From IMG/VR virus record IMGVR_UViG_3300015610_000939: a DNA stretch of 64,000 bases; one strand, written 5' to 3'. Source of the stretch: an uncultured virus (IMG/VR IMGVR_UViG_3300015610_000939) (taxonomy: Duplodnaviria; Heunggongvirae; Uroviricota; Caudoviricetes). This document shows positions 2,447 to 63,043 of the stretch, piece by piece. The position numbers and the translations under genes are program-made. The notes beneath the pieces are model-generated. The model searched no databases. It was not told the origin of the DNA and saw only the letters and a program-made list of their open reading frames with translations. How positions within the stretch are numbered: the first letter of the stretch is position 1; every line of letters begins with the position of its first letter.

Positions 2447-2935
2447 ATGGCTACCACACTCGGCGTAGAAGACATGCTTGTCACCAAGTTTCAACCACTT
2501 GCCAAGCGTCAATTCATCCTGGCAATTGAAGGAATCGACGCATTCCTTGTGAAGACGGCTTCTCGCCCAACTTTCACAACGGAAGAGGTCGCCATTCCGT
2601 TCATGAATCAAACACGGTACATTGGAGGTAAGACGACCTTCAACACAATGACCGTGACAATGCACGATCCTGTTGGTCCTTCGGGAGCCCAGCAGGTTAT
2701 GGAGTGGATTCGTGCCAAGTACGAGTCGGTTACTGGCCGTGAGGGCTATGCCGACTTCTACAAGCGCGACATCCAGTTGAAGCTCCTTGATCCAGTCGGA
2801 ACGGTTGTTCAGCTTTGGGATATCAAGGGTGCATTCATCACGGAAGCAAACTTCAACGACCTTTCCTACGAAGGATCGGACCTCGTTGAGATTTCGCTCA
2901 CACTTCGCTACGACAACGCTGTCCTGCAATTTTAG
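2447..2935 (+). CDS. Tail tube protein (T4 gp19-like)
   Basis: 162 aa, downstream of sheath; typical GAQQVMEW, GYADFYKRDIQLKLLDPVG..W.IKGAF, ISLTLRYD. Confidence 0.92.
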   Translation: MATTLGVEDMLVTKFQPLAKRQFILAIEGIDAFLVKTASRPTFTTEEVAIPFMNQTRYIGGKTTFNTMTVTMHDPVGPSGAQQVMEWIRAKYESVTGREGYADFYKRDIQLKLLDPVGTVVQLWDIKGAFITEANFNDLSYEGSDLVEISLTLRYDNAVLQF

Positions 2936-2995
2936 TCTTACTTGCAGCTTGCATTTGTCAAACATTGCGGTATCCTCTTTTGGAGGTTGCCTACA

Positions 2996-3862
2996 ATGTT
3001 CAAATGCCCCGACTGTTCTCTTGAGTTTCCCAAACTCATTTCTCTTTCCATCCATTACCATTCTACGCACAAAAAGGATGCCAAGTCCCTATACATTGCA
3101 TTGAATTGCGATGGCGTAGAGCCGACTTGTAAGTGTGGATGTGGCGGAGCTGTCAAGTATCTCGGGATCGAAGAGGGGTTTCGGGAATACATCCGTGGTC
3201 ATGTTGCTCGGGTGCACAACAATTGGGGGCATAATGACAAGGCCAGAGAGAAGTCTTTGGCAACTCGTCGCCAGATGCTTGAAGAAGGCGCCTGGAAGCC
3301 CTTTACAAGCTCGGAGACGGGTGAGCATTGGGGTAAGGGACTTACCAAGGAAACGGACTCTAGAATCGCTCGTATGAGCGAATCCATTAAGAGTAATTCC
3401 AAGGAAATCAGAAGGCGCTCAGAGCAAATGCGCCAAAATCGGCTGAATGGTGTTATTCCAACACTTCGTGGCCCTGATCATTCTCAATGGAAAGGAGGTG
3501 TTTCTCCTTTGCTTGCAATTTGTCACGCCAACAAGAAGTTGTTCGATTTGTGGAAATATCCTAAACTGGTCCTAGCGAGCTTTGCTTGCGAAGTCTGCAA
3601 GCGATCCCGAGCACAAGAGCCCCGCCCAATTTTAGAAGTCCACCATGATAAAGTGAAAATGGCGACAATTGTCAGGTTAATTGCCGAAGAAAAAGGATGG
3701 GATGACCATTATGCGTTGTCTCCGTCTACTGACGCGAACACTATGGTGCTAAAAACAGAAATTGCCGAGGCTGTTGCGGACTACCACATTCTGAACAATG
3801 TTTCCGGTGTGGTGTTGTGTGAAGAGTGTCACGAACAGCAGCACTCGAAATACAACTTCTAA
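2996..3862 (+). CDS. Free-standing HNH homing endonuclease with N-terminal Zn-finger modules
   Basis: CPDC..H...H and CKCGCG; WKGG; CEVC..EVHH...LCEECH. ATG 2996 has GGAGGT SD and a TTGCAT..TATCCT promoter-like sequence. Confidence 0.8.
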   Translation: MFKCPDCSLEFPKLISLSIHYHSTHKKDAKSLYIALNCDGVEPTCKCGCGGAVKYLGIEEGFREYIRGHVARVHNNWGHNDKAREKSLATRRQMLEEGAWKPFTSSETGEHWGKGLTKETDSRIARMSESIKSNSKEIRRRSEQMRQNRLNGVIPTLRGPDHSQWKGGVSPLLAICHANKKLFDLWKYPKLVLASFACEVCKRSRAQEPRPILEVHHDKVKMATIVRLIAEEKGWDDHYALSPSTDANTMVLKTEIAEAVADYHILNNVSGVVLCEECHEQQHSKYNF

Positions 3863-3898: not shown

Positions 3899-4831
3899 TT
3901 ACCTTCCTTTTCTTCTTTTTGCTTCGGCATCTTGGTTGCATTCTTGGCAGTAGGGGACAGCCAAGACCCAACCCTCTTGGTTGTGGTAGTTCACTACTTC
4001 CGCAATAACACGGTGGAACAAGCCAGTTCCTCCCATGGATGCCTCCAGGCTATCGTAATCCTTCATGACCTCATCGGCGGTTGTTGCCAACTTGTTGAGA
4101 GCAATGAGGATGATTTCATGGAAGAGTGGGTTCTGGTGGTGGATCTGCTTTCCTTCCGCTGATCGGCAGTGGAAACAAGGTGGAATACCGTGGAACATAT
4201 GCACGTACTTGGAGTAAACAGCTCCTCTCCACTCCACGTTGATCTCTTTGCTGTCCCGGATAATGTCCGAGAGTCGAGAGAAGGCACTCTTCTTTGTGGG
4301 GCTTCCTGCAATGACCCTCGCAAGCTCAAGAGTCTCCACCCTGGAAGGTGATTCCTTGATGCCCTCTGTTGGCTTTGTGGTGGCTTCTGCTGGCGGCTCA
4401 GCCTCGACAAGGAGGGTCTGCTGTTCCTGTACTGGGCGGACCTTCTTGATCCTCTCAACGGCTTCCACGACCGGCTTCTTTCGCCTGACAAGCATGGCTT
4501 GGAGGGAAACCAAAGAGGTTGGCTGAATTAGCATTGCCAACATCAAGGAACGAACACCATGCTTGAATCCCTCTCCTGAAGGGTCACAGAAGGGACGGTG
4601 ATACTTCTGCTCGTATGCCTTGAAGAAGTCACGCTTGTGGTTGTTGTCCAGGAAGTGATCCCACAATGCACCCCATCGAAGGAAGGTCAAGGTGCAAGGA
4701 CAACCTGGGACCGGGCAGGTTATTCCCTTGGGATTCTTACTGAAATAGGCGTCAAGGTCAGACTTGACCTCGTGTTCTTTTCGGTTCCTTTGCTCTGTCA
4801 TGAGCGAGAAAAATGTCTTCATGGCTTCCAT
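3899..4831 (-). CDS. Zn-finger / HNH-like protein
   Basis: CPVPGC..H...H N-terminal; CFHC..QIHH...YCQECN C-terminal, resembling the C-terminal domain of 2996-3862. Confidence 0.55.
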   Translation of the reverse strand: MEAMKTFFSLMTEQRNRKEHEVKSDLDAYFSKNPKGITCPVPGCPCTLTFLRWGALWDHFLDNNHKRDFFKAYEQKYHRPFCDPSGEGFKHGVRSLMLAMLIQPTSLVSLQAMLVRRKKPVVEAVERIKKVRPVQEQQTLLVEAEPPAEATTKPTEGIKESPSRVETLELARVIAGSPTKKSAFSRLSDIIRDSKEINVEWRGAVYSKYVHMFHGIPPCFHCRSAEGKQIHHQNPLFHEIILIALNKLATTADEVMKDYDSLEASMGGTGLFHRVIAEVVNYHNQEGWVLAVPYCQECNQDAEAKRRKGR

Positions 4832-5432: not shown

Positions 5433-6290
5433 ATGTCAGGAATGTCGCCAGAAGATGACAGGGCAGTAAGAAACGCTATCTTCGCTGCACGCCAAGCCGC
5501 AGAGGGAAACAAGGTTTCCGCTGTCCCAATGCAGGAAATTCAAATCCCAAGCGCTCAGGTACCTCTGCCAAGCCGAGGATTGGTTTATCCCGTGGGTTCT
5601 CCATTGCACGGCAAGGAGTTCATTGATATCAAGGGCATGACAACTCAAGAGGAAGATATCCTTATGTCGCGTGCCCTGATCAAGAAGGGTACAGTGATCA
5701 CCGAGTTGATCCGTTCGTGCCTTCTCACCCCAGGAGTTTCGGTCAACGATCTCCTTGCTGGTGACAGGAACGCCTTGATGGTTGCAATCCGTATTACAGG
5801 ATACGGACCAGAGTACACCCCAGTTGTTCAGTGCCCGTCTTGTGAGCAAAAGACGGAATACCCAATCAACCTGAGCGACCTGGACATCAAGCCGCTCGAA
5901 CTCGATCCCGTGGAGCCTGGAGTGAACAAGTTCGCCTTCAAGCTTCCTGTTTCAGGAAAGGTTGTAGCGTTCCGCTTCTTGACAGGCAGGGACGAGGAAG
6001 AGATTGCGGCAATTGTCGAGGCAAAGAAAAAGAAGGGTCTTGCTGTTGACAGCGTGATCACAACCCGTCTGACTTCTTGCGTTCTCTCGATTGATGGCGT
6101 TGAGGATCGCAACACGATTGCCAAGACCATCACCTACCTGCCAGCAAGGGACTCTCTGGCCCTCCGCAAGTACATGGAGCAGCATGAGCCGGGAATTGAC
6201 ATGCGTTGTCAGTTCGAGTGTCCAAATTGTGGACACACCGAGGAGGTTGCTGTCCCAATGGGAGCCTCCTTTTTTTGGCCTAACTCCTGA
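5433..6290 (+). CDS. Baseplate hub / tail assembly chaperone (T4 gp26-like)
   Basis: LPSRGLVYP, MTTQEEDIL, GDRNALMVAIRITGYG, two CxxC motifs, ends FFWP. Confidence 0.8.
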   Translation: MSGMSPEDDRAVRNAIFAARQAAEGNKVSAVPMQEIQIPSAQVPLPSRGLVYPVGSPLHGKEFIDIKGMTTQEEDILMSRALIKKGTVITELIRSCLLTPGVSVNDLLAGDRNALMVAIRITGYGPEYTPVVQCPSCEQKTEYPINLSDLDIKPLELDPVEPGVNKFAFKLPVSGKVVAFRFLTGRDEEEIAAIVEAKKKKGLAVDSVITTRLTSCVLSIDGVEDRNTIAKTITYLPARDSLALRKYMEQHEPGIDMRCQFECPNCGHTEEVAVPMGASFFWPNS

Positions 6291-8066: not shown

Positions 8067-8636
8067 ATGAGCAAGCTAGAAGTCATTTGCGGTCCCATGT
8101 TTGCAGGCAAGACAGAGGAACTCATTCGTCGAGTCAAGCGCTGCACCATCTCTGGTCAAGACATCCAAGTTTTCAAGCCATCTATGGATTACAGGTATGG
8201 CGTGGAGAGGATTGTCTCCCACGGGAAGACAGACCTTGAGTCTGCTACCGGAGTCAAGCCTGTTCCGATCAACACCAAGGAGAGGTTCGTTGTTGGGGAC
8301 AACACAAAGGTTGTCGCATTTGACGAAGTCCAGTTCTTTGATCCAAGCTGGATCGTCCCCGTTGTTGACGGACTGCTTGCTGACGGGATTCGTGTGATCT
8401 GTGCTGGCCTTGATATGAACACCTATGGGGAGCCGTTTGGCGCGGTCCCAGTTCTTCTTGCCAAGGCAGATGAAGTGACGAAGCTCAAGGCTATCTGTGT
8501 CTGCTGCAAGGAAGACGCTGGAAGGACCTACAGGGAGCTTCCGTATGCCAAGACGGGTGAAGCTGTGGAGGTTGGTGGTCATGGGCTCTACGAGCCCCGC
8601 TGTGGCGCTTGCTGGAAGCCAACTCCCAGGAGTTGA
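8067..8636 (+). CDS. tdk: Thymidine kinase
   Basis: GPMFAGKTEEL Walker A, FDEVQFF, AGLD, C-terminal Zn cysteines, YEPRC. Confidence 0.95.
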   Translation: MSKLEVICGPMFAGKTEELIRRVKRCTISGQDIQVFKPSMDYRYGVERIVSHGKTDLESATGVKPVPINTKERFVVGDNTKVVAFDEVQFFDPSWIVPVVDGLLADGIRVICAGLDMNTYGEPFGAVPVLLAKADEVTKLKAICVCCKEDAGRTYRELPYAKTGEAVEVGGHGLYEPRCGACWKPTPRS

Positions 8637-8701
8637 CTTTTTGGATAACAGCTCTACGCTTACTCTGTCAAGTTCAACTTCTCACCATTATTAGGATCTA
8701 T

Positions 8702-9376
8702 ATGGAAGATAATCTACAAGCCATCCTTACCGCTAAGCTGAAGAACGAAAAGAGCAAGCTCTTTGAGAGTTCACTAAACCGGATCATGTCCCATGTCAAC
8801 AAGGCGAAGGAGGAGGGATTTGCAATTCTCACTTCCTGGCGTCAGTCCAACGACAAGAAGACCAATCTGGCGAACTTCCAGGCCCTACAAAGCTTCGTTC
8901 GAGCCAAGGGATTGGGCTACATTCAACTACGTGGACACTGGCGGGAGTGCCAAGACACCTCCGTCCCCTACGATCAATGCCCTCCCGACAAACTGGTCGA
9001 TAGCGTCGAGCCATCATTGATGGTATTCAAAATTGACCTGGAGACGGCCAATCGTCTTGGAAAGCATTTTGATCAGGATGCTGTTGTCTACGCTGGTCCA
9101 GAAACAGGCGGACAGGTTCGGCTGCACTTCAAGAACGGCGATACGATGGACCTCGGCCAGTTTAATCCAATGACCATTGGGCAGGCATACTCAGAGTACC
9201 GTTCCAAGCAAGACAAAGAACAGAAGAAAAGTTCGCTGCCTCGCGCAGAGCGCCATTTTACTTTTGAAGGACACAGCTACCCAGCTCAGTCCTTTATTGA
9301 GAAGCTTGCTGAGTCTGCTATTGAGAAAAACATTCAAATTCTCAATGAAGGACTCAAGACACTCCCAAACAAGTAA
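8702..9376 (+). CDS. Conserved phage protein (DUF3293-like)
   Basis: LFESSLNRI, FAILTSWR, GLGYIQLRGHW, E.SL, LGKHFDQDAV. Confidence 0.55.
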   Translation: MEDNLQAILTAKLKNEKSKLFESSLNRIMSHVNKAKEEGFAILTSWRQSNDKKTNLANFQALQSFVRAKGLGYIQLRGHWRECQDTSVPYDQCPPDKLVDSVEPSLMVFKIDLETANRLGKHFDQDAVVYAGPETGGQVRLHFKNGDTMDLGQFNPMTIGQAYSEYRSKQDKEQKKSSLPRAERHFTFEGHSYPAQSFIEKLAESAIEKNIQILNEGLKTLPNK

Positions 9377-10207: not shown

Positions 10208-11047
10208 TTAACTAGGTTTGGTCCATCCCTTGTATGAAGCCCATTTGCCATTTGCAACCTTGCACAGGCCAGAAGGTTGAAGTCCCCGTTCCAAGCAGAA
10301 AGCCTGCATGTTGGTGAAAGTCACCACTTCTCCTTCGGGGCTTCGAAGGGTATAGGTCTTCATCATCCGGGCTTTCAGCCGCTCAGATGCCTTCCGTTTG
10401 CGCTCAGAATCAGAGTCCCATGCTGCTTTACGAGACTCTGATTGCTTGGCTCTATACTCCTCATCCTGCCAAAGTGCCTTGGAGTGCTCTCCCACCTTCT
10501 GCTTGAACTCTTCACTCTGGTAGATGGTTTCAGCCCGTTGCCGGAACTCGGGATCAGTCCATTTGGCTTTAGCAGCTTTACTGAGCTTCTGACGGTACTC
10601 CTCTGTCTGAGTGAACTCTCGAATCTTCTCCTCGTGCTTGGCACGGTACTCGGGGTCCTGCCACAACTCCTTGGTTCGTTGAGATTGGGTTTTTCGGAGC
10701 TGTTGGATCGCTGCATCGTCAGGTGCAAAAGCATCTTTCCGATGGTTATAGCACTGCTCTTGTTTGTCGTGGTACTGGTCAATGTAGACCTGTTCCCGTA
10801 ACTTTCGTTCTTCTTGAGTGCCTTCAGTAAGCTCCAGAATGTGAAACTCGAATGCTTCAGCTCCGCACTTGTTGAAGTCGTTCTGGAGGTACTTGTTTGA
10901 GTGCTTACCAGACTTCAAGTGCCGAGCATGGGATTTCCAGCGGGATTTAAACTCCTTGGCACTGCCAATGTAGATGCGCCCATTCAAGGTGTTGAGAATC
11001 TTGTAAATCCCTGACTTGAGAGAGTTGCCTTCGTAGTTGAACTTCAT
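10208..11047 (-). CDS. GIY-YIG homing endonuclease
   Basis: GIYKI..YIGS..RW..H..H.N..LQ; repeated W.D.EYR helices in the C-terminus. Confidence 0.9.
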   Translation of the reverse strand: MKFNYEGNSLKSGIYKILNTLNGRIYIGSAKEFKSRWKSHARHLKSGKHSNKYLQNDFNKCGAEAFEFHILELTEGTQEERKLREQVYIDQYHDKQEQCYNHRKDAFAPDDAAIQQLRKTQSQRTKELWQDPEYRAKHEEKIREFTQTEEYRQKLSKAAKAKWTDPEFRQRAETIYQSEEFKQKVGEHSKALWQDEEYRAKQSESRKAAWDSDSERKRKASERLKARMMKTYTLRSPEGEVVTFTNMQAFCLERGLQPSGLCKVANGKWASYKGWTKPS

Positions 11048-20000: not shown

Positions 20001-20939
20001 ATGAAGTTGAACTATGAAGGCAATTCGCTCAAAGGTGGCATCTACAAGATTGTCAACTGCCACAACGGTCGAATCTACATTGGGTCTACATCTCGATTTC
20101 AAACTCGATGGTGGAATGGACACGCTAAATCCTTGCTAAAAGGTAAGCACCAAAACCGCTTTCTTCAAGCCGATTTCAACAAGTGTCGAGCAGAACTTGG
20201 GCACGATGACTTTTTGGAATTCTCCATTCTGGAGATAATGGAGAAGTCGACCAAGGAAGAAAGGAAGCAGCGCGAACAGAAGTGGCTCGATCAGTATTTC
20301 GACAATGGCAATCAGTGCTACAACCTAAAAGCCTTGGCAGTTGTATCTCGGGAAGCCGTTCCCTCTAAAGACCCCAATGTAACACGAGAACGCATTTCCA
20401 TGCGCTCAAAAAAAATGTGGGCTTCGGTTTCTTCGGAAGAGAAAGAACGACGGATGCAGCTCTTCCAAGCTGGTAAAAACGAAGAATGGAAGGCCAAGAT
20501 TAGTGAATCCCTTACGGGTCGAAAATTGTCCCCCGAGCATGTTGAATCACTTAAAGCAGTAGCTCTCAGGGGCTCGGAACATGCGCGATATGGAATACCA
20601 AACAATTGGGGTACACATACCCCGGAAGCCATTGAGAAAATCAGAAAAGCTAGCACAGGCAGAAAACCAGCAGCAGAGTCTTTGGCGAAACGATCAGGCG
20701 CCAACCATTGGACAACAAGAAGAGAGTTTTCCAAGGAAGCAAAAGAGAAAATGAGTAAATCTCATGCTGACAGCATGAGAGCTGTACAAGCAACCAAAAT
20801 TCAAACGGGCGAAAAGATTCAATTTCAAGGAATTGGGGAGGCAGCTCGTGTTTTGAGTCTTCATAAGAGCGGAGTGCAAAATGTCCTAAAAGGGAAGTGT
20901 GCTCAAACTAAAGGTTGGTATTTCGAGTACCTATTATGA
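20001..20939 (+). CDS. GIY-YIG homing endonuclease with NUMOD-like repeats
   Basis: GIYKI..IYIGS; KISESLTGRKLSPEH and HTPEAIEKIR repeats; C-terminal HTH-like segment. Confidence 0.9.
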   Translation: MKLNYEGNSLKGGIYKIVNCHNGRIYIGSTSRFQTRWWNGHAKSLLKGKHQNRFLQADFNKCRAELGHDDFLEFSILEIMEKSTKEERKQREQKWLDQYFDNGNQCYNLKALAVVSREAVPSKDPNVTRERISMRSKKMWASVSSEEKERRMQLFQAGKNEEWKAKISESLTGRKLSPEHVESLKAVALRGSEHARYGIPNNWGTHTPEAIEKIRKASTGRKPAAESLAKRSGANHWTTRREFSKEAKEKMSKSHADSMRAVQATKIQTGEKIQFQGIGEAARVLSLHKSGVQNVLKGKCAQTKGWYFEYLL

Positions 20940-35184: not shown

Positions 35185-36210
35185 ATGAGCATTACGTGTG
35201 AAATCTGTCAAGAAGCGTTTGTGAATAACCTTGGTGGGCAGCTAACACAGCATGTTAGGTCTGCCCATTCTCTTACTCTTCAAGAGTATGTGGTCCAAGT
35301 CGAACATGGTGGAGTTGCACCGTCTTGTGCTTGTGGCTTGTGCAGCGAGTGTCCTGTTTTCTATCGAGGCAAGTTCAAGCGATATGCACTTGGTCATGAC
35401 TCGTTTGAAAAACGAGCAGAGCTCTATGTGGCTAAGTTTGGAATTCCGGCGTGCTTGACTTGTGGTCAATCCGTTGGATTCCACAGAGGCCAGCCGAAGA
35501 AGTTCTGCTCTTTCTCCTGTCAAGGAAAGCAAAATGGCTTTTCAAAGCCATCAACGCAATTGCGCATTCAGGAGGTGGTGCAGGCAAAGTACGGAGTCAG
35601 CAATGTCTCCAAACTCCCGGAGGTTCGTCGGGCCATCTCTGAGTCAAACACAGGCCGGTTGGTGGTTGTGTCAGACGCAACAAAAGCAAAGCACTCCCTC
35701 AACTCAAGGGAGAGATGGAGCGACCCATACACAAGAGCTCGGATGAGTGCTGGTATCAAGAAAGCCGTAAACTTGCCGGAAGAAAGACAGAGGAGAAGTG
35801 AGTTTGCGAAAAAGCAAATGAATGATGCTGAGCACATTCGCCTCTTTTTTGGTTCTGGATTTGGCCACTTGACAAAGCTGCATCAGCGGGTACGAGAACA
35901 CCTTCAGTTGGACAAATTTGGATTTGTTAGCGAGCAGCCAATTTGGCCATACATCGCAGACGAACTATGTGCCGATAGGCAAATTGTAGTCGAAATCAAC
36001 GGCGACTACATCCACGCGAATCCAAGGAAGTACAGTGCCGAGGCTGTGATCCGCATTCCTGGTGACAGCTATACTGCCGCCGAGAAATGGGAGAAAGACG
36101 CAAGGAAAATTGCTTACCTTGAGTCGAAAGGGTATCAAGTGCTTGTCATTTGGGAGAGCGATGACATGGAAGAATGGCGAAAAAGACTTGAGCTCTTCTT
36201 TGAAGGTTGA
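35185..36210 (+). CDS. Free-standing endonuclease, Zn fingers + Vsr/DUF559-like domain
   Basis: N-terminal CEIC..H..H, CACG, CLTC, FCSFSC; C-terminal VEINGDYIH..D..K...GYQVLVIWE. Confidence 0.8.
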   Translation: MSITCEICQEAFVNNLGGQLTQHVRSAHSLTLQEYVVQVEHGGVAPSCACGLCSECPVFYRGKFKRYALGHDSFEKRAELYVAKFGIPACLTCGQSVGFHRGQPKKFCSFSCQGKQNGFSKPSTQLRIQEVVQAKYGVSNVSKLPEVRRAISESNTGRLVVVSDATKAKHSLNSRERWSDPYTRARMSAGIKKAVNLPEERQRRSEFAKKQMNDAEHIRLFFGSGFGHLTKLHQRVREHLQLDKFGFVSEQPIWPYIADELCADRQIVVEINGDYIHANPRKYSAEAVIRIPGDSYTAAEKWEKDARKIAYLESKGYQVLVIWESDDMEEWRKRLELFFEG

Positions 36211-55490: not shown

Positions 55491-57299
55491 ATGAGCAGAG
55501 CACCTAACCGCTTCGTTGGACTTCACTCCCACAGTACCTTTTCCACATACGATGCCATTGGGCGTCCACAGGACCACATCGACTTTGCCATCAAGAATGG
55601 CTCCGATGCCCTGGCCCTGACTGACCACGGCAACATGAATGGTTTCTCCCATCAGTACCTCCATGCAAAGAAGCTGGAGGCAAAGGGGGTTCCATTCAAA
55701 CCAATCTTTGGCGTTGAGGCTTACTTCGTTCCTTCTTTGGAGGACTGGAAGGAGCTTCACCGTTCCCAGCTTGCAGAGAATGCAGCCGCAAAGGCTGCAA
55801 AGGCAGCTTCAAAGAAGAAGAAGGGCGCTGCTATTGAAGAAATTGGCAATGAGCTCGCTTCCACAGAGGCCGAGCTGGAGGAGATTGCCGAGGCAAAGGG
55901 CGGGGAAGAAACCGAAGATGACTCCGGTGGAACGATCATTGAGAATGAGGAAGAATCCAAGCAAAAGGTCCGCAATCCTCTCTACCAACGAAACCACTTG
56001 GTTTTGCTGGCAAAGAACGACGATGGATTGAAGGCTCTCTTCAAGATGGTCTCCGATTCCGCTGCTGGCGGCTTCTACAGGTATCCCAGGATGGACCTGG
56101 AGATGATCCGCAAGTATGCCAAGGGCAACGTTGTTGGGTTGACCGCTTGTGTTGCTGGGTATCTTGCAAAGATCGTCTTCGACCACCAGGAAGAGGGTGA
56201 TTTCAAGCTTTGGAAGCCAAACAACAACAATTTCGAGCTCATCCAGCGCGATCTTGCTCAAGCGATCCGGGAATTCCAGGATGCACTTGGCCCTGAGAAC
56301 TACTACCTTGAGCTCCAGTTCAACAAGCTCGGAGCCCAGCACCTTGTCAACTACCACCTGATCGAGGCTTCCAAGCGCACTGGAGCCCCGTTGGTGGTCA
56401 CTTGTGATGCTCACTACTCTGACCCAAATCACTGGCGGGAGAGGGAGATTTACAAGATGATGGGGCGGCTTCAGTTCATGAAGCCCGAAGACCAGAGAGA
56501 CGAGCTCCCAGCCAGTGTGGACGAGCTCAAGTGTGAGCTCTACCCAAAGAACGCTGAGCAGATTTGGGCCAGCTACAAGCATTACACCGAGCAAACCAAT
56601 GCAATCGGCGAAACAATGGTCTGCAACGTAGACGGCAAACCCGTCTATGACGACAATCTGATCCGTGAAGCAATTGAACGCACTCACGACATTGCGCACC
56701 AGCAAATTGGGAAGATTGAGCCCGACAGAAGGGTGAAGCTCCCTGCAATTCAGCGACTCCTGAGTGATGAAAACGTCGAGGAATTCAAGAGCAAGTTGCC
56801 AGCCGAGGAAGCTGACAACGAGGACTCCATTGCCTTCCAAGCCGTGAAGCAATACGCCATTGAGGGGTTGAAGAACCGCAAGGTTGCCGGGAAACAGGCT
56901 TACATCGACCGGCTCAAATACGAGCTGGAAGTGATCAAGACCTTGAAGTTTGCCAAATACTTCCTCACCTACTACCACATCATGCGTGTCTGCGGGGAGC
57001 ACATGCTCCTCGGCAACGCTCGTGGCTGTTTCTTGCCAGGGACTAGAGTCAAGATGGCTGATGGAATGATGGCCCCGATTGAAACCATTCAGGTCGGTGA
57101 ACAGGTGGCAGATGCGTATGGTAAAGTGCAGACAGTGGAAAACACCTTGACTTATGACTGCAACGAGGAGGTTGTTGAGCTAGAGTTCAATGACGGCAAA
57201 GTGATTCGCTGCACCAAGGATCATAAGTTCCTCACAACCAATAGGGGCTGGGTACAGGCCAAGGATCTTACTGGAGAAGATGACGTAAAGGAAGTATGA
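55491..57299 (+). CDS. dnaE: DNA polymerase III alpha, N-terminal half + N-intein
   Basis: PHP motifs LHSHS, ALTDHG, GVEAY, HLVLLAKN, DAHY; RLKYEL; extein ends GNARG, then CFLPGT. Confidence 0.95.
   Translation: MSRAPNRFVGLHSHSTFSTYDAIGRPQDHIDFAIKNGSDALALTDHGNMNGFSHQYLHAKKLEAKGVPFKPIFGVEAYFVPSLEDWKELHRSQLAENAAAKAAKAASKKKKGAAIEEIGNELASTEAELEEIAEAKGGEETEDDSGGTIIENEEESKQKVRNPLYQRNHLVLLAKNDDGLKALFKMVSDSAAGGFYRYPRMDLEMIRKYAKGNVVGLTACVAGYLAKIVFDHQEEGDFKLWKPNNNNFELIQRDLAQAIREFQDALGPENYYLELQFNKLGAQHLVNYHLIEASKRTGAPLVVTCDAHYSDPNHWREREIYKMMGRLQFMKPEDQRDELPASVDELKCELYPKNAEQIWASYKHYTEQTNAIGETMVCNVDGKPVYDDNLIREAIERTHDIAHQQIGKIEPDRRVKLPAIQRLLSDENVEEFKSKLPAEEADNEDSIAFQAVKQYAIEGLKNRKVAGKQAYIDRLKYELEVIKTLKFAKYFLTYYHIMRVCGEHMLLGNARGCFLPGTRVKMADGMMAPIETIQVGEQVADAYGKVQTVENTLTYDCNEEVVELEFNDGKVIRCTKDHKFLTTNRGWVQAKDLTGEDDVKEV
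57027..57296 (+). mobile_element. Split intein N-fragment (90 aa)
   Basis: Block A CFLPGTRV; block B IRCTKDHKFLT..GW..A.DL; then stop. Confidence 0.95.
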
Positions 57300-57538: not shown

Positions 57539-58468
57539 ATGGCTGGAATCAAAGGTGCAAAACAAAAGAAGATACTCACGCCCGAGCAACTAGATGAGTT
57601 GAGGGAGTTCTCTATATTCACGGAGGATTCCCTATCGTCATTCTTGGGGAAGCATTCCATTTCATTTGATGCTTTCAAGCGTAGAGCTACCGCTTCTGGA
57701 CTAACTGTACCATTCGGGTACTCCTACGCCGAGTACCAGAATAGGCCCGAGCTACAGTCTCCGTTCAATAAGAACAACCTGCGGATAGATTGCCCTTGCG
57801 GGAAGGTCTATATCACGGTTCTGTTTGGATTTCACAAGCGAAAGCACAAGGCCCCGGTTTGTGACGACTGTTATCGGAAGACATACGCTTATGACGCCGA
57901 CTGGAAGGCGAACAACAGCAAGGCTCAGAAGGCAGCCCAAAACCGTCCAGAAACGCTTGCGAAGCAGGTGAAGGCACAGAAGCTACGTTACCAGCAACCG
58001 GGCCTCCTCGACCGTTATAGGGCGATTGGGAAGGGATTGTGGGAAGATCCTGAGTACCGAAAGAAGGTTGTAGCTAACTCAAGTATCTCTAAGGCTGGCA
58101 CATACCATGGCTTGAGCTATCAGAGCTCGATTGAGCTTGCGTTTATCCTATGGTGTGAGCAGAATGGTAAACACATTGAAAACTATTCTGGAGAAGGCAT
58201 TCCGTACCTCTGGAATGGCAAAGCACACCACTACTATCCTGATTTTCTAGTTGACGGCAACCTTGTGGTTGAAATCAAGGGCTCAGGCGGGATCTACGAG
58301 CGGGATTTTGATCAAAACCAAGCGAAGTTTGCTGCCCTTCGCGAGTGGTGCAAAATAAACGGTTTTGGTGTTAGAGTGGTATTCGACACGGATCTTGGCA
58401 ATCGAGCCGTAAAGGAAGCGAAAAAACTACATGGCATACTTGGTAAGAAAGACAACGGTTCCATATAG
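57539..58468 (+). CDS. Free-standing PD-(D/E)XK (TnsA-N-like) endonuclease between intein halves
   Basis: CPCG..CDDC; YQSSIEL..IPY..YYPDFLV...VEIKG. Confidence 0.8.
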   Translation: MAGIKGAKQKKILTPEQLDELREFSIFTEDSLSSFLGKHSISFDAFKRRATASGLTVPFGYSYAEYQNRPELQSPFNKNNLRIDCPCGKVYITVLFGFHKRKHKAPVCDDCYRKTYAYDADWKANNSKAQKAAQNRPETLAKQVKAQKLRYQQPGLLDRYRAIGKGLWEDPEYRKKVVANSSISKAGTYHGLSYQSSIELAFILWCEQNGKHIENYSGEGIPYLWNGKAHHYYPDFLVDGNLVVEIKGSGGIYERDFDQNQAKFAALREWCKINGFGVRVVFDTDLGNRAVKEAKKLHGILGKKDNGSI

Positions 58469-58538
58469 CGGAAAAGTACATGACCTTACTGTATCAGAGT
58501 CTCACACTTACAACGTAGAAGGTAAAGCAGTTCACAAC
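58431..58538 (+). mobile_element. Split intein C-fragment (36 aa)
   Basis: Block F VHDLTV..SHTY; block G AVHN/S. Confidence 0.95.
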
Positions 58539-60812
58539 TCTGCTGGTGGCTCGTTGCTTGCTTATGTCCTGGGAATCACCCAAATGGACCCAATCAAGCA
58601 CGACCTCTTGTTTGAGCGTTTCATGACACGCAAGAAGAAGGCATTTCCTGACATTGACTCGGACTTTGCTGACCGTGAAAAGGCAGTGAAGCTTCTCCAG
58701 GAGTTCTTTGGGGAGGAGAACGTCATTCCTGTGAGCCTCTTTGCTGCTCTCAAGCCCTTGTCTCTCATCAAGGACTTGTGCAAGCTCAACGGGGTGCCAT
58801 TTGAGCTGGTGAACGACTACACCAAGACCATGATCCCCGAGGTAATGGCTGTGAAGAAAGGTGAGCCTGGGTTTGACGCTGCTCAGTACGAACTCACCTT
58901 TGAGGATCTTGCCGAGCACTCTCCGTCATTCCGTAAGTTCATGAGCGAGGTTGCTTCGAACTTCCCCAAGTTCAAGGATACGCTCGACGTTCTTTGGAAG
59001 CAGCAGAGGAGCATTGGAAGGCACGCAGGCGGCGTGATCATCACGGCTGGCTCTCGGGCCTCGATGCCCTTGATCAAGGCAAAGGGAGGGCTCCAGACGC
59101 CTTGGCCAGAGGGTTTGGCGGCTCGTCATCTTGAGGACTTCGGGCTTCTCAAGTTTGACGTGCTCGGACTTGGCACCCTTCGAATCTTCGAGGACACGAT
59201 CACCCGTATTCTCAAGAAAGAGGGGAAGAAGTACGTCACCCAGGCTGACATCAACAAGTGGTTCTTCGAGAAGCTCCACCCGGACAACAACACAATGGAC
59301 GACTTGAACGTCTACAAGCACGTCTATTGGGAAGGTAGGTACGCTGGCATCTTCCAGTTCGTAAAGGACAACGTCCAGCGCTTCATGAAGGAAATGAAGC
59401 CACGTTCTGTGCTCGACATTGCTATTGCGACCTCGATCTTCCGTCCTGGTCCAATGGGCTTGGAAATCGATCTGCCAAATGGCGAAAAGATCCATGGGGC
59501 TCAGAACATGTTCTTGATCAACCGAAATAACCCGGATTCCGTGCACTATGCACACCCGGCATTGAAGGAAGTTCTGGAATACACCAGCGGTCTTCTGATC
59601 TTCCAGGAGCAGCTCCAGTTGATCGTCAACAAGCTCTCTGGAATGCACCTGGACGATACAGACTCGATCCGCAAGGCATTCACGAAGAAGGACAAGAGCA
59701 ACGCAGAGAAGCAAGCCAAGGAAATCAAGGCACTTGGTGAGAAGTTCGTGGAAGACTCCATGAAGCACTCTGGCATCTCCAAGGAGGACGCTGAGACGGT
59801 TTGGAAGGACTTTGAGAAGTGGACGGCTTACGGCTTCAACAAGTCGCACGCTATGGCCTACGCCATCACCTCCTACCAGTGTGCTTGGTTCCTTACCTAC
59901 TACCCCGAGGAGTGGATTGCCTCCTACCTTGACTTCGCCACGGATGGAAAAGGCAAGAGTGCCAGTGGTGAGGACCCCAAGTCTGTTGCCATGCTTGAAG
60001 CCCAAATGTTGGGTTTTAAGTTTGGCAAGCCAGACATCAACTACTCTGAGGACAAGTTTACCGTCAGGGAAGGAAAGGTGTTGATTCCTTCGTTCAGTGC
60101 AATCAAGGGTGTCGGTAAGGCTTCACTCCTGGAAGCGAAGCAACACCGACCATACACGGAGCTCCGAGACCTGATTGTGAATAGGGACGGAACCTGGAGA
60201 CATTCCAAGTTCAACAAAAAGGCCCTTTCCCACCTGATCAAGACCAACGCCTTCAATTCCATGAACTTGGTTGGTCCAGGCTGCATCTTTGACAACTACA
60301 AGCAGATGCACACCGCCTTGATCGACAACCACGAGCTACTCAAGCGAATTGCCTCAAGAAAGAAGGACAACGACGCTGTTGCCAAACTGCTTGAAATCAT
60401 TGAAACCGTGAAGCTCACCGATCCAAGCGACTGGACACTTGACGAGAAGCTGGAGTTCTCAAAGGAACTCACGGGTCAAATCGACGTTTCCTTGATCCTC
60501 ACGCCTCAAATGGTCGAGTTCTTCACCAAGAACAACATCGAGTCCGTTGACTCCTTTACCGGCCCACAAAAGCTCTATTGGGCGATTGTGGACTCATGTT
60601 CCGTCTTGGAAACCAAGACAGGAAACGAGTATCTTGCCTTGACCTTCCACGGTGAATCCGGGGCAAAGCGGAAGTGCAAGGTGTGGAACTACAAGAGTGA
60701 CCGGGACACCCTGTACAGGAAGGACGACATTCTCGTTCTTCGACTTGAATCGGATGACTACGGCTTGAGAGCCAAGCCAACTGGCATCCGAATCCTCAAG
60801 AAAAAGGTCTAA
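58431..60812 (+). CDS. dnaE: C-intein + DNA polymerase III alpha, C-terminal half
   Basis: After VHN: SAGGSLLAY.LGIT, FERF, PDIDSDF, HAGG, KFDVLGL, FQEQ, YGFNKSHA..Y, IKGVG. Confidence 0.95.
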   Translation: MAYLVRKTTVPYSGKVHDLTVSESHTYNVEGKAVHNSAGGSLLAYVLGITQMDPIKHDLLFERFMTRKKKAFPDIDSDFADREKAVKLLQEFFGEENVIPVSLFAALKPLSLIKDLCKLNGVPFELVNDYTKTMIPEVMAVKKGEPGFDAAQYELTFEDLAEHSPSFRKFMSEVASNFPKFKDTLDVLWKQQRSIGRHAGGVIITAGSRASMPLIKAKGGLQTPWPEGLAARHLEDFGLLKFDVLGLGTLRIFEDTITRILKKEGKKYVTQADINKWFFEKLHPDNNTMDDLNVYKHVYWEGRYAGIFQFVKDNVQRFMKEMKPRSVLDIAIATSIFRPGPMGLEIDLPNGEKIHGAQNMFLINRNNPDSVHYAHPALKEVLEYTSGLLIFQEQLQLIVNKLSGMHLDDTDSIRKAFTKKDKSNAEKQAKEIKALGEKFVEDSMKHSGISKEDAETVWKDFEKWTAYGFNKSHAMAYAITSYQCAWFLTYYPEEWIASYLDFATDGKGKSASGEDPKSVAMLEAQMLGFKFGKPDINYSEDKFTVREGKVLIPSFSAIKGVGKASLLEAKQHRPYTELRDLIVNRDGTWRHSKFNKKALSHLIKTNAFNSMNLVGPGCIFDNYKQMHTALIDNHELLKRIASRKKDNDAVAKLLEIIETVKLTDPSDWTLDEKLEFSKELTGQIDVSLILTPQMVEFFTKNNIESVDSFTGPQKLYWAIVDSCSVLETKTGNEYLALTFHGESGAKRKCKVWNYKSDRDTLYRKDDILVLRLESDDYGLRAKPTGIRILKKKV

Positions 60813-60814
60813 CC

Positions 60815-61378
60815 TCAGACCTGTCTCTCTGCTTCGTAAGAGAGAACAAGTTTGATCTCAAGGGGATCTTTGGACCCGTAATCAAGGGGGGAACATTCCA
60901 TTTCATCCACTCGGATGCCCGAAAAGTGCCGAGCACGGACTGTATCCCCTCTGCTGTTCACGTAGTGCAGGGTGCCAGTTCTCGGGAACATGAAGGTTCC
61001 AAGAACCATTTCCTCTACCTGCTGGTAGGTGGCAGGAGCAACAGCCTCATGGAGGTAAACCGTGAGCTTCCTCTGCTTCTTGGCGAAGCTGTAAACGTCG
61101 TCTCCCCGCTCCCTGACGTACTTTGGAAACTCTACCCTCTTGACAAGGAAGGCGTCGATTCCTTCAAGTTCAAGTCTCCATTGCCAGCCGAGAAGCAAAT
61201 CGAATTTGGCGATCCGATTCTCGGGCTTGACCGGACACTTCCGAAGTCCCTGGATCAAGTTCTTGGTTTCTGTCATGATTTCCCTGACCTTGACCTTCTC
61301 CTCCTCGGTCATCTTTGGAAGAACCGAAGTTTCGCCAACACGGGGATCACCTACCATTACGGAAATTGTTTCTGCCAT
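60815..61378 (-). CDS. Diverged tail-tube paralogue outside the tail module
   Basis: EGIDAFLVK identical to the tube gene; colinear similarity to the C-terminus (LDYGSKDPLEIKLVLSYE vs LSYEGSDLVEISLTLRYD). Confidence 0.8.
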   Translation of the reverse strand: MAETISVMVGDPRVGETSVLPKMTEEEKVKVREIMTETKNLIQGLRKCPVKPENRIAKFDLLLGWQWRLELEGIDAFLVKRVEFPKYVRERGDDVYSFAKKQRKLTVYLHEAVAPATYQQVEEMVLGTFMFPRTGTLHYVNSRGDTVRARHFSGIRVDEMECSPLDYGSKDPLEIKLVLSYEAERQV

Positions 61379-61472
61379 CTTTTCCTCTTTTCTAGGATTG
61401 CTCGGGTATGTAGCAGATGGTCAAAATTCACCGTGTCCAAAAGAAGGGTCTATTTATCGGTAAGGATTACCC

Positions 61473-62402
61473 GTGAGCCAGAACATCACCAACCTCCTCA
61501 CCAAGACAATCAAGGAATCTCTCCAGCGTTCCGGTGCCATTCCCCCTTCAGATACCCCTAAGAAGGTGACCGAGGCGGTGGTGCAAGCGGTGGTGGAGAA
61601 GGGAAAGGCTTCTCTGAAGGAAGCTCTTGTTGTCCTTCCAAAGCATTTTCACCTTGGCACCCAGTGGCTTTCCAGCAAGACGAAGAAGGCGCACGACACC
61701 CTGTACCAGGAATATGTGGCAAAGTTCAATCAGGTCTCGGCAAAGCTGGATTCAGCTTCCCGAGAGCAAATTGATGAATTCCGCAACCTGAAGAGGGATT
61801 TGACCTACAACATGAATGCTGTGAAGCTCCACGAGCTCTACTTTGGGAACATTTCCGACCTGGAGTCGCAGATTCACCGCGATTCCATTCCATTCATGCG
61901 TCTCGCAAGGGATTGGGGCAGCTTCGAGAACTGGCAGTTTGACTTCATTGCAACTGCTCTCTCGGCTCGTGAGGGATGGGCTGTTGTGTGCTACGATCCC
62001 TACAAGGACAAGTACATGAACCTCGTGATTGACGGGCATGATGCAGGCGTTCCGCTTGGTGCTGTTCCTGTGATCGTCATGGATATGTGGTCCCACTCCT
62101 ACTTTGCTGACGTGCAAGACGACAAGCAGAGCTACCTGAACTCCATGATGCGGGAGCTGAATTGGAACGTCATTGAGGCAAGGATGGTCATTGCCGAGCG
62201 TTCGCAGTTGAAGGACCTGTACCTTGTTCGTCCGTTGGTTGACAATACACCAACCAAGATGCTCGACCAAGCAGCAAACACCCCTCCAATTGGGAAGAGT
62301 CAAATCTCCCCAGGTGGAGTGGAGCCAATCCCAGCTCCGGGATCGGACATGCAAGTCAACCCACGCCCAGCCGTTGGGGCTCAACAGAACAAGGTGCAGT
62401 GA
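61473..62402 (+). CDS. Fe/Mn superoxide dismutase-family protein with N- and C-terminal extensions
   Basis: H..LY..YV, LHELYF.N, WGSFE.W, GWA, DMWSHSY (variant of DVWEHAY). Confidence 0.85.
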   Translation: MSQNITNLLTKTIKESLQRSGAIPPSDTPKKVTEAVVQAVVEKGKASLKEALVVLPKHFHLGTQWLSSKTKKAHDTLYQEYVAKFNQVSAKLDSASREQIDEFRNLKRDLTYNMNAVKLHELYFGNISDLESQIHRDSIPFMRLARDWGSFENWQFDFIATALSAREGWAVVCYDPYKDKYMNLVIDGHDAGVPLGAVPVIVMDMWSHSYFADVQDDKQSYLNSMMRELNWNVIEARMVIAERSQLKDLYLVRPLVDNTPTKMLDQAANTPPIGKSQISPGGVEPIPAPGSDMQVNPRPAVGAQQNKVQ

Positions 62403-63043
62403 TGAAAAAAGTCAAGTCCTTTAAGGAGGCAGCTTCCCTTTTGCTCGAAGAGGGAGCTCCAATCAATCCTGCTGATGCCCAGCCAACAGACCCAAGCGTC
62501 CAGAACTTGTCCATGGACATGAAGGTTGACTCGTATTTCCTGAAGTACGAGAAAGAAAGCCTTCCAACACAGCAGACCTATGCTGTTCCAGGATCGGCAG
62601 AGAACATGATGTTTGAGTTCCGGTCCTTCGCAAAGCAGTTGCTCGAAGCTGAGGGAGATGATCCCCTTGCTGGTGGGGATGCTGGGTTTGGTGCTGATCC
62701 CGGTGGAGCAGGGGGTGCAGGCGGGGATGATGCAGGAGCTCCCCCAGCCGCTCCAGCTCAACCTCAAGTGGAGAATCCACGTTTCAACGTGAGAAATTTC
62801 GCTCAGTCGGTCGCAAGACTTGTTTTGAACTACGAGGGTCTTCTTGATCCAAGGACGACAATTCTGAACAGAGCCAGATACTTCATCGAGAAGAACTACG
62901 ATGCAGGTGTTGCAAGGCAAATGATGGACATTCTGGAGACACAATTCAGGCTGTCGCCACGCACAGCGGAAGCAAATGACGGGGTTTCGGCTCCGATTGC
63001 CGGTGGAGCCTGGACGGGTGTCGGCGGAGGTGGTGGAGGATAA
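62399..63043 (+). CDS. Hypothetical protein, possibly virion-associated
   Basis: LLLEE/LLEAEG followed by a Gly/Ala/Pro linker; FA..VARL..NY..LLD. Confidence 0.6.
   Translation: MMKKVKSFKEAASLLLEEGAPINPADAQPTDPSVQNLSMDMKVDSYFLKYEKESLPTQQTYAVPGSAENMMFEFRSFAKQLLEAEGDDPLAGGDAGFGADPGGAGGAGGDDAGAPPAAPAQPQVENPRFNVRNFAQSVARLVLNYEGLLDPRTTILNRARYFIEKNYDAGVARQMMDILETQFRLSPRTAEANDGVSAPIAGGAWTGVGGGGGG

Follow-up and report, generated by a model that had tools for sequence, protein, structure and literature searches.

The window, by which we mean the whole 64,000-nucleotide stretch of DNA analyzed here (IMG/VR record IMGVR_UViG_3300015610_000939), is a piece of the genome of an uncultured giant myovirus. 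Near its end, a gene coding for a 187-residue paralogue of the tail tube protein lies on the minus strand between the C-terminal half of dnaE and a gene for an Fe/Mn-superoxide dismutase (SOD)-like protein. The features of this locus, together with the tube gene at the other end of the window, are as follows.

2447..2935, plus strand: canonical tail tube gene (PF06841, phrog_4542, synteny)
58431..60812, plus strand: dnaE, C-terminal half, convergent with the paralogue (phrog_405, 1.3e-128; synteny)
60805..60822, minus strand: terminator-like hairpin followed by a T-run, overlapping the stops of both the paralogue and dnaE; a consensus match only
60815..61378, minus strand: tube paralogue coding sequence, 187 aa (ORF call, codon score, BLASTP, copy in contig G002, AlphaFold2 model)
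60815-60817, minus strand: stop codon of the paralogue
60818..61213, minus strand: tube-fold core, aa 56-187 (VIA-align, with a model range of ~48-187, and Foldseek)
61073..61129, minus strand: aa 84-102, predicted loop and short helix replacing the long beta-hairpin of the tube (models and alignment gaps)
61139..61165, minus strand: EGIDAFLVK motif, common to the tube (2528-2554), 25/27 nt
61214..61378, minus strand: N-terminal extension, aa 1-55, with a predicted helix at 25-46; no tube equivalent
61379..61472, no strand assigned: divergent intergenic region, 94 nt (sequence)
61383-61387, minus strand: GAGGA ribosome-binding site, 4 nt 5' of the ATG (sequence)
61473..62402, plus strand: Fe/Mn-SOD-like gene, divergent from the paralogue (Sod_Fe_C, 5.7e-18; synteny)

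The paralogue is one of 73 ORFs called in the window with a simple ORF caller. Its codon-usage score, 0.22 per codon, lies in the range of the neighbouring genes; the tube scores 0.29 and dnaE 0.31. Convergent with one neighbour and divergent from the other, it would form its own small transcription unit in its slot. No sigma-70-like site was found near it, the T4 late-promoter box TATAAATA was not found across the window, and the k-mer AGTGAATTC, present upstream of a few genes, was not enriched (21 matches vs 19.7 expected); a lone ATAAATA at -80 of the paralogue was dismissed as meaningless. Contigs from two RNA libraries of a single study span the paralogue and both neighbours, although they may be of DNA origin, and neither strand nor expression level can be read from them.

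The genome from which the window derives is probably ~300-375 kb in size. CheckV estimated completeness at 13% for the 48.9-kb contig G001 and at 20% for the 70.9-kb contig G002, and a complete relative with terminal repeats, G003, measures 305,036 bp. DNA nearly identical to that of the window was present in wastewater and activated-sludge runs (20 rows from 11 studies, with runs dated 2018 to 2025). In the window, tail genes are intermixed with replication genes along one strand. The canonical tube gene sits between a sheath gene (3-1325) and a T4 gp26-like hub gene (5433-6290); its product scores 28.8 bits with PF06841 (cut-off 28.2) and 2.8e-29 with phrog_4542, and its closest deposited relatives, at 39-43% identity, are in Microcystis phage Mel-JY01, Flavobacterium phage immuto and Rhodothermus phage RM378. 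Profile scans of IMG/VR found tube orthologues at 77 of 80 loci and a sheath gene within 2.5 kb at 103 of 107 loci. Among the exceptions in the second scan, L216 and L218 were tube loci with no sheath gene in the available stretch; the other exceptions, in both scans, were paralogue loci.

The paralogue and the tube are homologous. BLASTP aligned the two proteins with 50.4 bits (E 4e-13), with 41 of 147 positions identical (28%) and colinearity up to the C-terminus. An earlier, sequence-only reading of the window had recognized an orphan tube paralogue at this position, and its description is confirmed: the 187-residue frame is real, its C-terminus is colinear with that of the tube, and it lies 57.9 kb from the tube gene (given there as 58 kb). 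The near-identity of DNA in the EGIDAFLVK motif that it pointed out (25 of 27 nt between 2528-2554 and the reverse complement of 61139-61165) is also present, but it adds nothing to the protein match because nine identical residues leave only third positions free. The G, D, F, L and K of this motif are conserved in both the tube and the paralogue families. The longer, unrelated N-terminus described there corresponds to ~55 residues that have no counterpart in the tube, within which the pattern EEEK..V..I..ETK.LI is conserved in sequences P0003, P0005 and P0006.

We searched 1.84 billion representative sequences for further members and found 34 proteins at E <= 1e-3, mostly of 131-190 aa. Common to these 34 cluster representatives are one set of motifs and two deletions relative to the tube (described below), and about a third of the family carries N-terminal extensions, of 30-70 aa, which are unrelated between subgroups. 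The paralogue itself had no match to PF06841 at E <= 1 and none to any PHROG at E <= 0.1. Among 35 family proteins, four matched PF06841, all below the cut-off, and 15 matched phrog_4542 at E <= 1e-3. In a tree of 66 rows, from which P0002, P0021 and P0023 (fragments or redundant) and a mis-extracted RM378 row were left out, 30 canonical tubes, including those of Mel-JY01 and immuto, formed one tight clade with short branches (support 98/98), and the window's paralogue fell within a long-branched set of 28 rows behind the branch starred in the tree (98/91). Thus, the paralogue belongs to an undescribed, fast-evolving subfamily of gp19-type tail tube proteins.

The difference in evolutionary rate is large. 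Mean column identity was 77% for the tubes (32 orthologues) versus 25% for the paralogue family, and the tube alignment is nearly free of indels, with 163 columns for proteins of 162-163 aa. Between related contigs, the paralogue was only 27-35% identical where dnaE was 55-75% and the SOD-like protein 44-62% identical, whereas the tube was still 68% identical where dnaE was only 49%. Searches of other collections returned little. No short paralogue was found in 50,697 deposited phage records with three queries; scans of viral contigs gave no matches with P0004 and P0006 and almost solely canonical tubes with alignments A5 and A6; and metagenome scans for the paralogue gave either nothing or a single 1-kb contig. 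Longer, fused forms were not found among 154 candidates, which argues only weakly against such forms.

The AlphaFold2 model of the paralogue, built with 34 family sequences, has a mean pLDDT of 81.9 and shows a helix at residues 25-46 followed, from ~60 to 187, by a beta-sandwich with one helix. With VIA-align, the model scored Z 13.6-13.8 to the tube proteins of T4, PVC, AFP and AlgoCIS (13.6 to T4 gp19, 5w5f), Z 10-11.3 to the Hcp fold and Z 12.4 to the 175-residue chain 9mkb_AC of a T4 neck-tail entry, which we take from its chain size to be gp3. Foldseek matches were likewise to tubes of contractile systems: AlgoCIS, AFP (including Afp5), PVC, Hcp and T4 gp19. Within the 50 best matches in BFVD, gp19-type tubes were intermixed with gp3-type proteins named 'tail completion and sheath stabilizer', and seven of these 50, of 159-254 aa, were named as gp3-type tail-completion or head-proximal tube-tip proteins. 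The fold cannot separate a tube from a terminator or an initiator, since the scores (Z 13.8 vs 12.4-12.9) are nearly tied. In a complex prediction with the tube, the paralogue core scored 0.02 against a mark of 0.32, which speaks neither for nor against an interaction. The Hcp fold is related to that of the paralogue, but the surrounding genes, among them those for sheath, tube and hub, are those of a phage and not of a type VI secretion system.

Two segments of the tube are missing from the paralogue. A 7-residue gap corresponding to tube residues 49-55 (AIPFMNQ) is present in at least half of the paralogue clade, and 11 residues are deleted at tube positions 93-103, where true tubes have an invariant loop. 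The sequence-only reading had noticed a shortened region, which is the first of these, and had missed the second. In the tube model, the first segment is part of a confident hairpin (strands 43-52 and 55-65, pLDDT ~90). The paralogue model has no strand between those at residues 79-83 and 103-110, but a 19-residue loop with a helix at 95-100. As judged from the predicted models and the alignment, the stacking hairpin of the tube, which joins one ring to the next, is therefore reduced to a loop in the paralogue.

The loss of tube features extends beyond these deletions. We compared the 73 tube positions that are conserved in at least 90% of 32 orthologues with the 24-row paralogue clade: 23 positions were kept, nine lay in the deleted segments and 41 were no longer conserved (50 lost in all). 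The kept positions comprise GIDxFLVK, L72, I76, P78, S79, Q82, Q83, V84, E86, K112, L114, D115, G118, V120, G128 and Y141, and the core motifs retained by the paralogue are GIDxFLVK, APSxxQQV, LKxLDxxG and LDY. Conservation was lost at, among others, the hairpin residues R57, Y58, G61 and K62 and at F104-D108. The loss of the hairpin tip, of the invariant loop and of 50 of the 73 constrained positions suggests that the paralogue has given up features required of a polymerizing subunit, and the proposal of the sequence-only reading that the protein does not polymerize agrees with these alignments and models. Set against gp19-type tubes (PF06841, phrog_4542), with which it is homologous and shares the fold and the motifs GIDAFLVK, APSxxQQV, LDxxG and LDY, the paralogue thus lacks the hairpin tip and invariant loop and has an added N-terminal extension; in addition, it is not encoded beside a sheath gene, is not universal and evolves much faster.

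Despite its rapid divergence, the gene has been maintained. Compared with the 94%-identical copy in G002, it differs by 18 synonymous and 11 non-synonymous changes (dN/dS 0.16; 0.02 for the neighbouring SOD-like gene), and eight of the 11 residue differences fall in the N-terminal 55 residues. The gene was intact in contigs from four of four runs in three studies, with no deletion-type joint, and its frame was intact in all five contigs in which it occupies the same position, despite only 27-42% mutual identity. Judged from these substitutions and frames, the gene is functional and under purifying selection. Further downstream in the window, at 62667-62710, populations differ by a 12-nt insertion and small deletions; these lie in ORF 62399-63043, in the glycine-rich part of its 214-residue product.

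We examined the distribution of the paralogue at the dnaE/SOD-like junction in relatives. The 309-residue SOD-like protein, whose N-domain is weak, is 44-100% identical across 21 related loci. Among the ten contigs that contain both dnaE and the SOD-like gene, five (the window, G002, G008, G009 and L224) carry the paralogue between them, and five (L103, which is part of G003, and L105, L106, L107 and L108) do not. Relative to the window, the dnaE products of G002, G008, G009 and L224 are 91, 74, 75 and 55% identical and the paralogues 94, 31, 35 and 27%, respectively, with the paralogue on the opposite strand in all four. The content of the slot (60813-61472 in the window), which we also compared in L011, L012, L103, L105-L108 and L224, ranges from ~115 nt to six unrelated ORFs: where the paralogue is absent, L106 has only ~115 nt, G003 has a 498-aa ORF, and three to six unrelated ORFs occupy the slot in L105, L107 and L108. 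None of the four slot ORFs scanned matched a Pfam family, and a 178-aa ORF upstream of the L224 copy had no relatives among the sequences searched. We had considered a functional tie of the paralogue to dnaE, for example as a clamp-like ring, but dropped it: in G008 and G009, ~2.5 kb of other genes lie between the two, so that the slot is conserved and adjacency is not.

The same patchiness was seen elsewhere. Eleven further SOD-like loci, with no dnaE nearby, lacked the paralogue. When all 1896 six-frame ORFs of the complete G003 genome were searched by HMM at full sensitivity, only the tube was recovered; the next match, at E 0.41, could have been a divergent copy but was a chance FLVKKV and was rejected. 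A search of G003 and G004 with phrog_45 likewise found only the tube, and Mel-JY01, RM378 and immuto have only their tube and no paralogue. G004 (81% complete) encodes a tube and a 131-aa paralogue that are 50 kb apart, the latter in another non-structural context. The conservation in all relatives that would mark an ordinary tube or terminator subunit is thus not what we found, as the gene is absent from G003 and from five of the ten syntenic contigs, and relatives whose tails are orthologous manage without it. On the evidence of these comparisons, the junction is a hypervariable slot, and the paralogue is a dispensable passenger that has long been retained in some lineages.

The dnaE gene beside this slot is itself fractured in the window, into parts at 55491-57299, 57539-58468 and 58431-60812. 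Its N-terminal half ends, after ...GNARG, in an intein N-fragment (CFLPGTRV...TKDHKF) and is followed by a free-standing ORF for an HNH-type endonuclease; in the C-terminal half, a 36-aa intein C-fragment (...VHN) precedes SAGGSLLAYV. This arrangement matches that of 'fractured genes with split inteins'. In G003 the gene is broken at this site too, and G008 and G009 have an uninterrupted dnaE of 1247 aa.

We suggest that the paralogue is a dispensable, gp3-like ring at an end of the tail tube and hence a part of the virion, a reading based on analogy that we would place at roughly 40%. The retained core would form a six-fold ring docking on one face or end of the tube; with no hairpin, the ring would not allow further building, and the variable helical N-terminal extension could reach the next component. 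This favours the 'minor tail component' that the sequence-only reading had offered as its alternative. The model for such a ring is T4 gp3, for which the cited passages of PMC12929629 report a structure very similar to that of gp19 at ~22% identity, a long loop (residues 45-65) at the ring bottom that attaches to the part below, and binding to the next ring, gp15, partly via an elongated N-terminal segment; there, gp3 is called a 'special' extra tube terminator of T4. The paralogue resembles gp3 in its tube fold, its low identity to the tube and its size (176 aa for gp3 vs 187 aa). Its predicted model also shows a loop at the place of the hairpin and a long N-terminal segment, as described for gp3 in PMC12929629, although its score to the putative gp3 chain (Z 12.4) cannot be told apart from those to tubes. 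The genes are alike as well, each lying far from its tube gene, in the opposite orientation and next to a gene of nucleotide metabolism: T4 gene 3 has the dNMP kinase gene as its neighbour and is separated from gene 19 by 25 kb. The remoteness and orientation of the paralogue, to which the sequence-only reading had appealed, therefore carry no weight against a role in the virion.

The likeness to gp3 has limits. The N-terminal extension of the paralogue is much longer, the gene is not conserved among relatives and, whereas gp3 attaches by a long loop, the loop of the paralogue is ~10 residues shorter than the corresponding element of the tube. Comparison of the paralogue with gp3 gave an hhalign probability of 0.15, a BLASTP E of 6.3 and no match to phrog_45, a family that includes both T4 gp3 and gp19. 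The paralogue and its own tube match at E 4e-13, a much closer relation than that of gp3 with gp19 (E 0.54). In the lack of a sequence relation, the likeness to gp3 would be one of analogy and function, arising from a separate duplication. Phage T5 has a minor, fast-evolving tube-like copy, p140, that serves as an adaptor ring, and the paralogue can be likened to it, although no fibre gene adjoins the paralogue.

A ring at the opposite, baseplate-side end of the tube would be an initiator or spacer like T4 gp48/gp54, phiKZ gp88 or Afp5/Pvc5; it would accept the hairpins of the first tube ring and need none of its own. In the cited part of PMC12929629, the T4 loop equivalent to the hairpin is directed downwards, at the underlying ring, so a hairpin-less ring would fit best beneath the tube. 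Afp5 (6rao_F) was among the best Foldseek matches to the paralogue (rank 3, E 5.7e-6), and phiKZ gp88, which can be aligned to the core of the tube, is numbered well apart from gp30, the tube gene (cited section of PMC13250141). Like the paralogue, Afp5/Pvc5 and phiKZ gp88 are second tube-fold proteins distinct from the bulk tube; however, they are constant parts of their machines, whereas the paralogue is dispensable among close relatives. An initiator would be an essential part, yet the paralogue is missing from the complete G003, with its orthologous sheath, tube and hub genes, as well as from half of the syntenic contigs. Moreover, N-terminal segments of the tube fold point headward according to the cited portions of PMC12886913 and PMC12929629, and the 55-residue extension would thus collide with the first tube ring. 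We consider such an initiator quite unlikely. That the gene is a decaying, functionless duplicate seems highly improbable to us: tube-specific conservation has been lost and many relatives lack the gene, but the dN/dS of 0.16, the intact frames in five syntenic contigs and the motifs and deletions shared by 34 representatives all argue against decay.

Its speed of evolution, hypervariable slot and patchy presence also fit genes of counter-defence or competition. The paralogue could then be a tube mimic outside the virion that serves as a decoy for, or shields against, immunity that senses the tube, or that poisons the tails of co-infecting relatives by chain termination; this is an unlikely but not far-fetched reading. 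An accessory, fast-evolving paralogue under purifying selection in a hypervariable slot among replication genes is what such a mimic might look like, as is a protein in which the fold core persists after loss of the stacking hairpin and of 50 of the 73 constrained tube positions. Immunity that senses the tube exists, and Avs16 senses tail tube proteins (cited section of PMC13581612). However, Avs16 is modelled there on the tube beta-hairpin, exactly the part that is altered here, and a sensor that reads the hairpin would not see a tube in the paralogue. A cap that poisons related tubes would endanger the phage's own, given that tubes are 59-100% identical across relatives. We found no host partner, no defence context and, when we searched the literature for tube and paralogue decoys, no precedent. 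Thus, nothing that we found supports the assembly blocker or the immune decoy proposed by the sequence-only reading, nor is its suggestion of a repertoire of virion-protein mimics backed, with no capsid-family match among the 73 called ORFs at E <= 1e-5. A bolder version, in which the short paralogues as a whole are mobile, quickly diversifying intracellular tube mimics that are traded via hypervariable slots and, with a ring-forming core and no stacking hairpin, engage Avs16/DSR2-type sensors or the growing tails of competitors, strikes us as doubtful.

Contractile tails have few tube-fold paralogues, and their roles as tube, terminator or initiator were fixed long ago. The subfamily reported here contrasts with these in keeping the core, dropping the stacking elements, evolving several-fold faster than the tube and having a patchy distribution in near relatives. 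An optional end-ring would mean that a phage lineage can re-equip the ends of its tail tube, and a protein acting in the cell would be a structural-protein mimic with no predecessor of its kind. In both cases, the 34 cluster representatives found at E <= 1e-3 make the family a concrete target for expression and capping assays.

The tail region of the group has further features of its own. Relatives carry two tandem, full-length sheath-like genes (in L019, 2768-5818 and 5887-8886, coding for 1016 and 999 aa), both matching phrog_23, whose products share ~33% identity in their C-terminal parts; the sheath gene at 3-1325 of the window is the end of the second. Tandem sheath genes were seen in nearly all loci with enough upstream sequence, so this paralogy seems constant in the group, in contrast to that of the tube. 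Directly upstream of both sheath genes in L019 lies a 403-aa ORF (1455-2666) with sub-threshold matches, over the same stretch, to T4-gp15_tss (E 0.068) and Phage_tail_terminator_2 (E 0.084); it is a candidate general tail terminator, which may make a separate tube terminator dispensable. In the window, the tube gene is flanked by two Cys/His-rich ORFs (2942-3862, plus strand, and 3899-4831, minus strand), for which no family was found. Homing-endonuclease-like ORFs (GIY-YIG/HNH, by PHROGs) are located among the tail and replication genes at 10208-11047 (minus), 20001-20939 (plus) and 35185-36210 (plus). Finally, an ORF in the tail/baseplate region (8609-9376, plus strand) matches DUF3293 at 4.9e-7, above the cut-off, and an S-adenosylmethionine lyase family at 2.3e-5, below it, and may be a counter-restriction gene.
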